From: a virus | Lineage: Duplodnaviria; Heunggongvirae; Uroviricota; Caudoviricetes | Virus record (IMG/VR): IMGVR_UViG_2778261385_000001 | Length of the DNA: 25,458 nt | Reading direction: 5' to 3' (one strand) | In this document: one piece after another, positions 21,511-22,218 of the stretch | Numbering within the stretch: position 1 is the stretch's first letter | Layout of the letters: every line of letters starts with the position of its first letter | Notes under the pieces: generated by a model | The model's input: the letters and a program-made list of their open reading frames with translations, nothing else | Databases searched by the model: none | Told to the model about the DNA's origin: nothing | Made by a program: the position numbers and the translations under genes

Positions 21511-21545
21511 ACATAAAATATATGATTTTTAATCCAGTTTTGCAA
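21511..21545 (-). promoter_or_regulatory. Putative late promoter (pR'-like), sigma70-type
   Basis: Minus strand TTGCAA (-35, 21540-21545), 17-bp spacer, TATATT (-10, 21517-21522), overlapping the stop codon of the Q-like gene and directed toward the lysis genes. Confidence 0.45.
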
Positions 21546-22218
21546 TATCTTGCTGTGAAAATATGGTCTTTTGTTTTGAACGTGTTTTCGTTAAAAGCAA
21601 TAAAGCTTGGCTATCAAGCTGTAGAAAAATGTGCTTCATTGCAACCCAGCGTTCAGTAAATGTCTCAGACCAGTTTTTTGATGTCACTCCCACCAGTGAT
21701 GCCAGCTCCTGGTATTCATAGGTCTTACGCCCTGCCAGCTCGTTCTTCACATCCTGTGCCGCCAGCCAGATCAACTTCTTCAAACGTTCCAGTGTTTTAC
21801 CTGCAATTTTCCTGGTACCCAACAGAGTCTTAAACTCGCTCCATGCCCACTGCGTTATGGTGACCTGATGTTCCCAGCGAACACTTTCGCTGTAACTCCA
21901 CAGCAACCACGCTTTCTGATGTTCTTCGAGAGACAGAACCGCGCGGCGCCATGACGAGGTTGAGAACTCAACCTGGCTGACCAGTGCAATGGATGAACCT
22001 TTTGCGTACAACTGCTTACCGGAAATCGGCGGATTATCCAGCGTAATCATCCTGCCAGTTACCTCATCCAGAATGCGCGGCTTCTTTCGTTTGTATGTAC
22101 CAGTATCAAATTGTGCATGCTCCAGCCAGGCTTCAAGCTGTCCTTTCGTTGCTCCGCTCAAATCAGCGGTAGCCACAATGAGTTGCTCGCGGACATACTG
22201 TAAATATTGGGTATTCAT
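21529..22218 (-). CDS. Putative late-gene antiterminator (Q-like by position), 229 aa, cysteine-free
   Basis: Occupies the Q position: downstream of rusA and ylcG, immediately upstream of the late promoter, terminators and lysis cassette; ATGA overlap with ylcG; sequence is not lambda Q. Confidence 0.45.
   Translation of the reverse strand: MNTQYLQYVREQLIVATADLSGATKGQLEAWLEHAQFDTGTYKRKKPRILDEVTGRMITLDNPPISGKQLYAKGSSIALVSQVEFSTSSWRRAVLSLEEHQKAWLLWSYSESVRWEHQVTITQWAWSEFKTLLGTRKIAGKTLERLKKLIWLAAQDVKNELAGRKTYEYQELASLVGVTSKNWSETFTERWVAMKHIFLQLDSQALLLLTKTRSKQKTIFSQQDIAKLD

Follow-up and report, generated by a model that had tools for sequence, protein, structure and literature searches.

The Q gene and its neighbours

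The window, by which we mean the whole 25,458-nucleotide stretch of viral DNA analysed here (IMG/VR record IMGVR_UViG_2778261385_000001), carries on its minus strand the gene order ybcN, ninE, ybcO, rusA, ylcG, Q, holin, endolysin and Rz. The Q gene (21529..22218, minus strand) opens with an ATG at 22218, closes with a TAA at 21531-21529 and encodes a product of 229 aa, assigned as a phage 82-type antiterminator of the Q82 family (PF06323) from the open reading frame, Pfam, PHROG and identity to CAA63332. A ribosome-binding site, AGGAG, can be read from the sequence 7 nt 5′ of the ATG (22226..22230, minus strand), and a ribosome-binding site is annotated at the equivalent place in the phage 82 record X92588. 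The start codon of Q overlaps the stop codon of ylcG within an ATGA at 22215-22218. Start/stop overlaps of the ATGA type are typical for translationally coupled nin-region genes, and the overlap suggests that translation of Q may be coupled to that of ylcG. The Q reading frame is certainly a real gene, since it has a full-length Pfam match, 2780 homologues in the protein database at E ≤ 0.001 and an identical annotated coding sequence, WP_001097224.1, which is the gene of E. coli strain 4/1-1 and is named 'bacteriophage antitermination protein Q' in RefSeq.

A sequence-only reading of this DNA had argued for a Q-type antiterminator from the slot itself, which follows rusA and ylcG and precedes the lysis genes. 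The open reading frames and the RefSeq annotation agree with that order, and a Q82-family protein does lie between ylcG and the lysis genes. The same reading had described the product as a cysteine-free protein of 229 aa, Trp-rich in its centre and with a possible helix-turn-helix (HTH) near the C-terminus, and we recovered each of these features. The protein has 229 residues, with 0 Cys, 10 Trp (4.4%) and 4 His; the string quoted for the Trp-rich centre, WLLWSYSESVRWEHQVTITQWAWSEF, corresponds to residues 104-129, the string quoted for the HTH, YEYQELASLVGVTSKNW, is present at residues 167-183, and the predicted model places an HTH at residues 169-183. Finding 0 Cys in 229 residues is not striking, having a probability of about 7% at an assumed Cys frequency of 1.15%.

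Family assignment and comparison with phage 82 Q

Three families of Q proteins are distinguished, namely Q21 (PF06530), lambda Q (PF03589) and Q82 (PF06323) (Yin et al. 2022, PMC9388147). The protein scores 312.2 bits on PF06323 (Phage_antiter_Q), whose gathering cut-off is 25, with residues 4-219 aligning to positions 1-216 of the 220-position profile, and the Pfam scan returned no other family at E ≤ 1, neither PF03589 nor PF06530. It also matches PHROG 304, 'anti-termination protein Q-like', with an E value of 2.6e-107 and 358.6 bits. An NCBIfam scan gave no match at E ≤ 1, a result that is uninformative given the strong Pfam and PHROGs matches. The earlier view that the protein is unlike lambda Q is upheld by the lack of a PF03589 match and by the 0 Cys available for a zinc ribbon. 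The further suggestion of 'a different Q family (Q21/Q82-like)' divides: its Q82 part is borne out by PF06323 and by 223/229 identities to 82Q, and its Q21 part falls with the lack of a PF06530 match.

Since the 1980s, 82Q has served as a standard model in studies of sigma-dependent pausing and antitermination. The protein described here is a member of the Q82 family and is 97% identical to 82Q (CAA63332, from X92588), which is likewise 229 aa long and aligns without gaps. The two genes differ at 11 of 690 nucleotides, and a DNA search of the phage collection returned X92588 (rus, orf45, Q) at 97.6% identity. Relative to 82Q there are six substitutions (S70L, E204Q, R211K, A218T, T219I and N224D), of which one is in a loop that is poorly modelled and the other five are towards the C-terminal end of the final helix; all six fall outside the HTH (residues 169-183) and outside the family-invariant residues. 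The genes upstream of Q in phage 82, rus and orf45/ylcG, are also found here. Unlike in phage 82, Q here belongs to a prophage integrated beside icd, in which cargo has been inserted upstream of the nin region. Near identity to 82Q indicates that the allele in this prophage is probably active as an antiterminator.

Other Q systems lie further away. The Q of phage 434, called 'Q82-like' in OL657226, is an 87% identical protein. Lambda Q (PF03589; PDB 4MO1 and the cryo-EM complexes of PMC9388147) has no detectable sequence similarity by Pfam, phmmer or profile. AlpA of Pseudomonas aeruginosa (PDB 7XYA/7XYB) shows 10-17% sequence identity and no profile match and, unlike lambdoid phage Q, is a chromosomal lysis-cassette regulator. 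Q21 (PF06530; PDB 6P18-type complexes) is alike in functional role and gene position (PMC9388147); tested against the Q21 family, the protein gave neither a profile match nor a fold match.

Cysteine content and predicted structure

Lambda Q carries a Cys-coordinated zinc-ribbon 'arm' at residues 114-152 (PMC9388147), which is absent from the present protein with its 0 Cys. The earlier statement that the Cys4 zinc site of lambda Q is impossible here is thus correct by count. Among 296 collected family members of at least 190 aa, 72 lack Cys and the others have between 1 and 7. Only two alignment columns show conserved Cys, aligned to Q residues 108 and 122 (window about 21895-21897 and 21853-21855, minus strand). 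Both columns hold Cys in 59/59 and 8/8 representatives of two distant PF06323 clades, and in the Q82 clade the first is occupied by Ser, or sometimes Cys, and the second by Thr. Since a Cys4 site cannot be built from two Cys, and since 82Q works in their absence, lack of Cys is a clade trait and presents no functional puzzle.

The predicted model of the Q protein shows a four-helix-bundle body and a canonical HTH, as in the lambda Q family, with low confidence in the N-terminal 30-80 region. Searching PDB sequences with the protein alone, and again with a profile built from 74 sequences, gave a best E value of 1.3, all hits being spurious; hence the Q82 family has no solved structure, and sequence does not connect it to the Q21 or lambda Q chains. 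In a Foldseek comparison with predicted structures of viruses, the one significant match was a Q protein of 63% identity, and no other family was linked. A shared fold of Q82 with lambda Q and AlpA is suggested by the model, a point already in the literature.

The late promoter pR′ and its predicted pause site

The last codons of Q contain the -35 element of the late promoter pR′, TTGCAA (21540..21545, minus strand), which was found by promoter scan and is the same in phage 82. From this element to the Q stop codon (-35..-19) the phage 82 sequence is identical, and X92588 ends there. A 17-nt spacer (-29..-13; 21523..21539, minus strand), taken from its position in PMC4914094 as the candidate region for the Q-binding element (QBE), separates the -35 from the -10 element, TATATT (21517..21522, minus strand), which the promoter scan also identified and which is kept in relatives. 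We set the putative transcription start, +1, at 21510 (minus strand), the first A of AAA, so that a GCC falls at +15-17. For 82 pR′, Bird et al. 2016 (PMC5001585) report a pause element that resembles a -10 and includes an extended -10, a GCC at +15-17, and pausing at +25/+26, where +25 is U. With +1 at 21510, the promoter -10 occupies -12..-7, TGATATTTT occupies +6..+14, GCC occupies +15..+17, and T and A stand at +25 and +26, so that this predicted start fits every published 82 pR′ landmark simultaneously. The putative sigma70-dependent pause element therefore consists of the extended -10-like TGATATTTT followed by the discriminator-like GCC (21494..21505, minus strand; by match to PMC5001585), and the predicted promoter-proximal pause positions, +25 (U) and +26, at which Q would load onto RNA polymerase, map to 21485..21486 (minus strand; by position against PMC5001585). 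Pause element, GCC and +25 U are all at the positions published for phage 82. The title of a reference in PMC5001585 speaks of initiation slippage at the 82 late promoter, and the AAA start fits with such slippage.

In 82 pR′ the QBE lies between the -35 and -10 elements, within the segment -31..+30 (Strobel, Hochschild and colleagues, PMC4914094). From this we infer a QBE at about 21523-21539. The spacer contains a short palindrome, GATTaaaAATC (21524-21534), which might form part of the QBE, a 4+4 palindrome being too short for statistical meaning; an inverted-repeat search of the promoter region returned only an AT-rich overlapping palindrome. A search for a Q-binding element and a pause site downstream of the promoter, proposed in the sequence-only reading, has had a divided outcome, with a predicted pause element found (+6..+17, pausing at +25/26) and a QBE placed by position only.

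The -35, spacer and -10 elements are conserved 3′ of the Q homologues in phage 434, PPompW and a Klebsiella phage, the Q of the last being only 64% identical, and TGATAT...GCC is conserved in PPompW and the Klebsiella phage; in Gifsy-1 the pR′ elements could not be aligned. Phage 434 has the same arrangement of -35, spacer and -10 and an annotated terminator shortly after its pR′, whereas its pause element differs (TTGGTATGTTGTA against CTGATATTTTGCC here), as do its downstream genes. Lambda pauses at +16/17, in contrast to +25/26 for the 82-type.

Two plus-strand motifs overlap this region. At 21540-21553, TTGCAATATCTTGC fits the lambda CII pattern TTGCN6TTGC, runs antisense to the 3′ end of Q and overlaps the pR′ -35; the homologous position is annotated in the phage 434 record as a CII binding site and paQ -35 signal. 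This is the single match to the pattern in the window, against 1.84 expected by chance, and is suggestive by position only. A YdaT-domain gene stands at the place of lambda cII in this prophage. At 21492-21519 a promoter-like TTGGCA-16 nt-TAAAAT (10/12 matches) points antisense into Q and overlaps the initial transcribed region of pR′; it may be a mere reflection of the AT-rich promoter region.

Terminators and lysis genes

Downstream of pR′, terminator scan and RNA folding identified a first intrinsic terminator-like hairpin (21425..21461, minus strand) with a 12-bp stem (+50..+76) followed by UUCUGUUUCU. This hairpin is kept in both the MFE and the centroid fold. The same methods gave a second, tR′-like intrinsic terminator (21321..21347, minus strand; +164..+190), in which GCCAGC-loop-GCUGGC is followed by UUUUUUAUU (U6AUU). 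Lambda tR′ terminates at +193 (PMC4914094), which resembles the distance of about 190 nt from +1 to the second terminator here. A weaker third candidate lies at 21314-21293. A promoter-terminator cassette at 21320-21545 had been proposed earlier, and the promoter scan, terminator scan and RNA folds all agree with it. At gathering thresholds, an Rfam scan matched nothing in the whole window, and the short terminated pR′ transcript therefore does not correspond to any sRNA catalogued there.

The lysis cassette (19981..21207, minus strand; open reading frames and RefSeq) comprises holin (20902-21207), endolysin (GH24; 20439-20915) and Rz (19981-20442) with an embedded Rz1 reading frame (20040-20222). 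The holin start at 21207 corresponds to about +304 from the pR′ start, and late morphogenesis genes follow further downstream of the cassette. Just downstream of Rz, in the opposite orientation to the lysis genes, lies an iss/bor lipoprotein gene ('increased serum survival'; 19656-19949, plus strand); iss/bor is a known virulence-associated lambdoid cargo gene. A different arrangement after pR′ is seen in PPompW_132418 (locus L007 1589-1829) and in Stx2a-associated phages, which have a 74%-identical Q82-family Q; there, three tRNA genes (Met, Lys and Arg) and ISEc20 replace the terminator/holin arrangement.

Prophage context and distribution

Positions 1-25404 of the window are identical to the genome of E. 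coli strain 4/1-1 (NZ_CP023844.1, reverse complement). In the remaining 25405-25458, 39 of 54 positions differ from strain 4/1-1, a divergence that may reflect an indel, or another allele, within the inverse autotransporter gene. The prophage adjoins icd and carries integrase, excisionase, exo/bet/gam, kil, an S24 repressor, cro, the YdaT-domain gene and replication genes, then a cargo block, the nin region, Q, the lysis genes, iss/bor and a lambda-like head and tail operon. We also considered a DLP12-like remnant without early genes; this was rejected, as an early region is present beyond the cargo insertion and the prophage lies beside icd.

Replication gene P and the nin region are separated by the cargo block (window 24067-25110, plus strand, and 25147-25458, minus strand; 18581-23926 of the prophage locus L010). 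It consists of a 4.3-kb inverse autotransporter gene (intimin/invasin-like) and an oppositely oriented gene for an alpha/beta hydrolase with a signal-peptide-like N-terminus, and any transcript from pR has to traverse the block before reaching Q. Nothing in the early region of the prophage is annotated as an N gene. Outside the window, at the lambdoid N position between the kil-like and repressor genes, there is an unannotated stretch of about 600 bp (L010 14388-14984). Among 5426 complete E. coli genomes, the 799 bases of Q and its promoter region matched in 1358, about a quarter, and in 696 of these the identity was ≥ 99%.

Discussion

We conclude with high confidence that the gene encodes a phage 82-type Q, the late-gene antiterminator of a complete lambdoid prophage beside icd in E. 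coli, and nothing in the data contradicts this reading. In purified in vitro systems 82Q acts as a QBE-dependent, pause-dependent antiterminator (PMC4914094, PMC5001585), and its read-through of terminators is stimulated by NusA (PMC4914094). Because the protein and the promoter are essentially those of phage 82, the established 82Q pathway is the best explanation of the locus. RNA polymerase sigma70 holoenzyme would initiate constitutively at pR′ (+1 at about 21510), sigma70 would rebind the extended -10-like element at +6..+14, and the complex would pause at +25/+26. Q would bind the QBE, probably as a dimer, and engage the paused complex with help from NusA (PMC4914094, PMC5001585). The Q-modified polymerase would then pass the two terminators (about +76 and +180) and transcribe the holin, endolysin, Rz and morphogenesis genes; without Q, short terminated RNAs would be expected. 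An RNA-exit-channel nozzle has been proposed for Q82 after the examples of Q21, lambda Q and AlpA (Wen et al. 2022), and may apply here. Complexes that carry long RNA, however, can still be loaded with 82Q, an ability that a closed nozzle does not readily explain (Yin et al. 2022, PMC9388147).

The C-terminal HTH of the predicted model would also suit a conventional DNA-binding activator of the late promoter, and a distant homologue, N15 gene 40 (28% identity), is annotated as a 'late transcription activator'. We nevertheless regard an activator that is not an antiterminator as highly improbable, since 82Q, 97% identical to the protein here, is QBE- and pause-dependent as an antiterminator in vitro (PMC4914094, PMC5001585), and since the -35 and -10 hexamers of pR′ come close to consensus and terminators lie downstream, the layout of an antitermination system. 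Just as improbable is a diverged member of the Q21 or lambda Q family: PF06323 is the sole Pfam match at E ≤ 1, which refutes either membership at the family level. A distant common fold with the lambda Q body is the only relation across families that is possible.

Somewhat less remote, but still unlikely, is a Q that is of the Q82 type by descent and functionally silent, either as an unused intact reading frame or in a late operon that cannot be induced. In its favour, polymerases reading through from pR might be hindered from reaching Q by the 5.4-kb cargo insertion that follows P and precedes the nin region, and the early region has no annotated N gene. Against this, the reading frame is intact and 100% conserved in many genomes (with the 696 records at ≥ 99% identity noted above), all cis-elements are intact, and integrase, repressor, replication, lysis and complete morphogenesis genes are present; moreover, a phage record, PhiR47_2, has the same segment of Q, late promoter and terminators at 99.9% identity.

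Read as a phage 82-type antiterminator, the feature is already known, since protein and promoter alike are textbook items found here in nearly identical form. What novelty remains is at the level of the family: Q82 is without an experimental structure, and the model hints at a fold shared with lambda Q and AlpA, which is itself in the literature. Whether Q82 uses a closed nozzle is likewise a question of the family and has already been flagged (PMC9388147). For the prophage, the annotation of the slot is settled: it holds a late switch of the Q82 type together with the matching pR′, pause site and terminators, and the prediction follows that late and lysis gene expression would respond to proteins of Q82 specificity, including those supplied by superinfecting phages.
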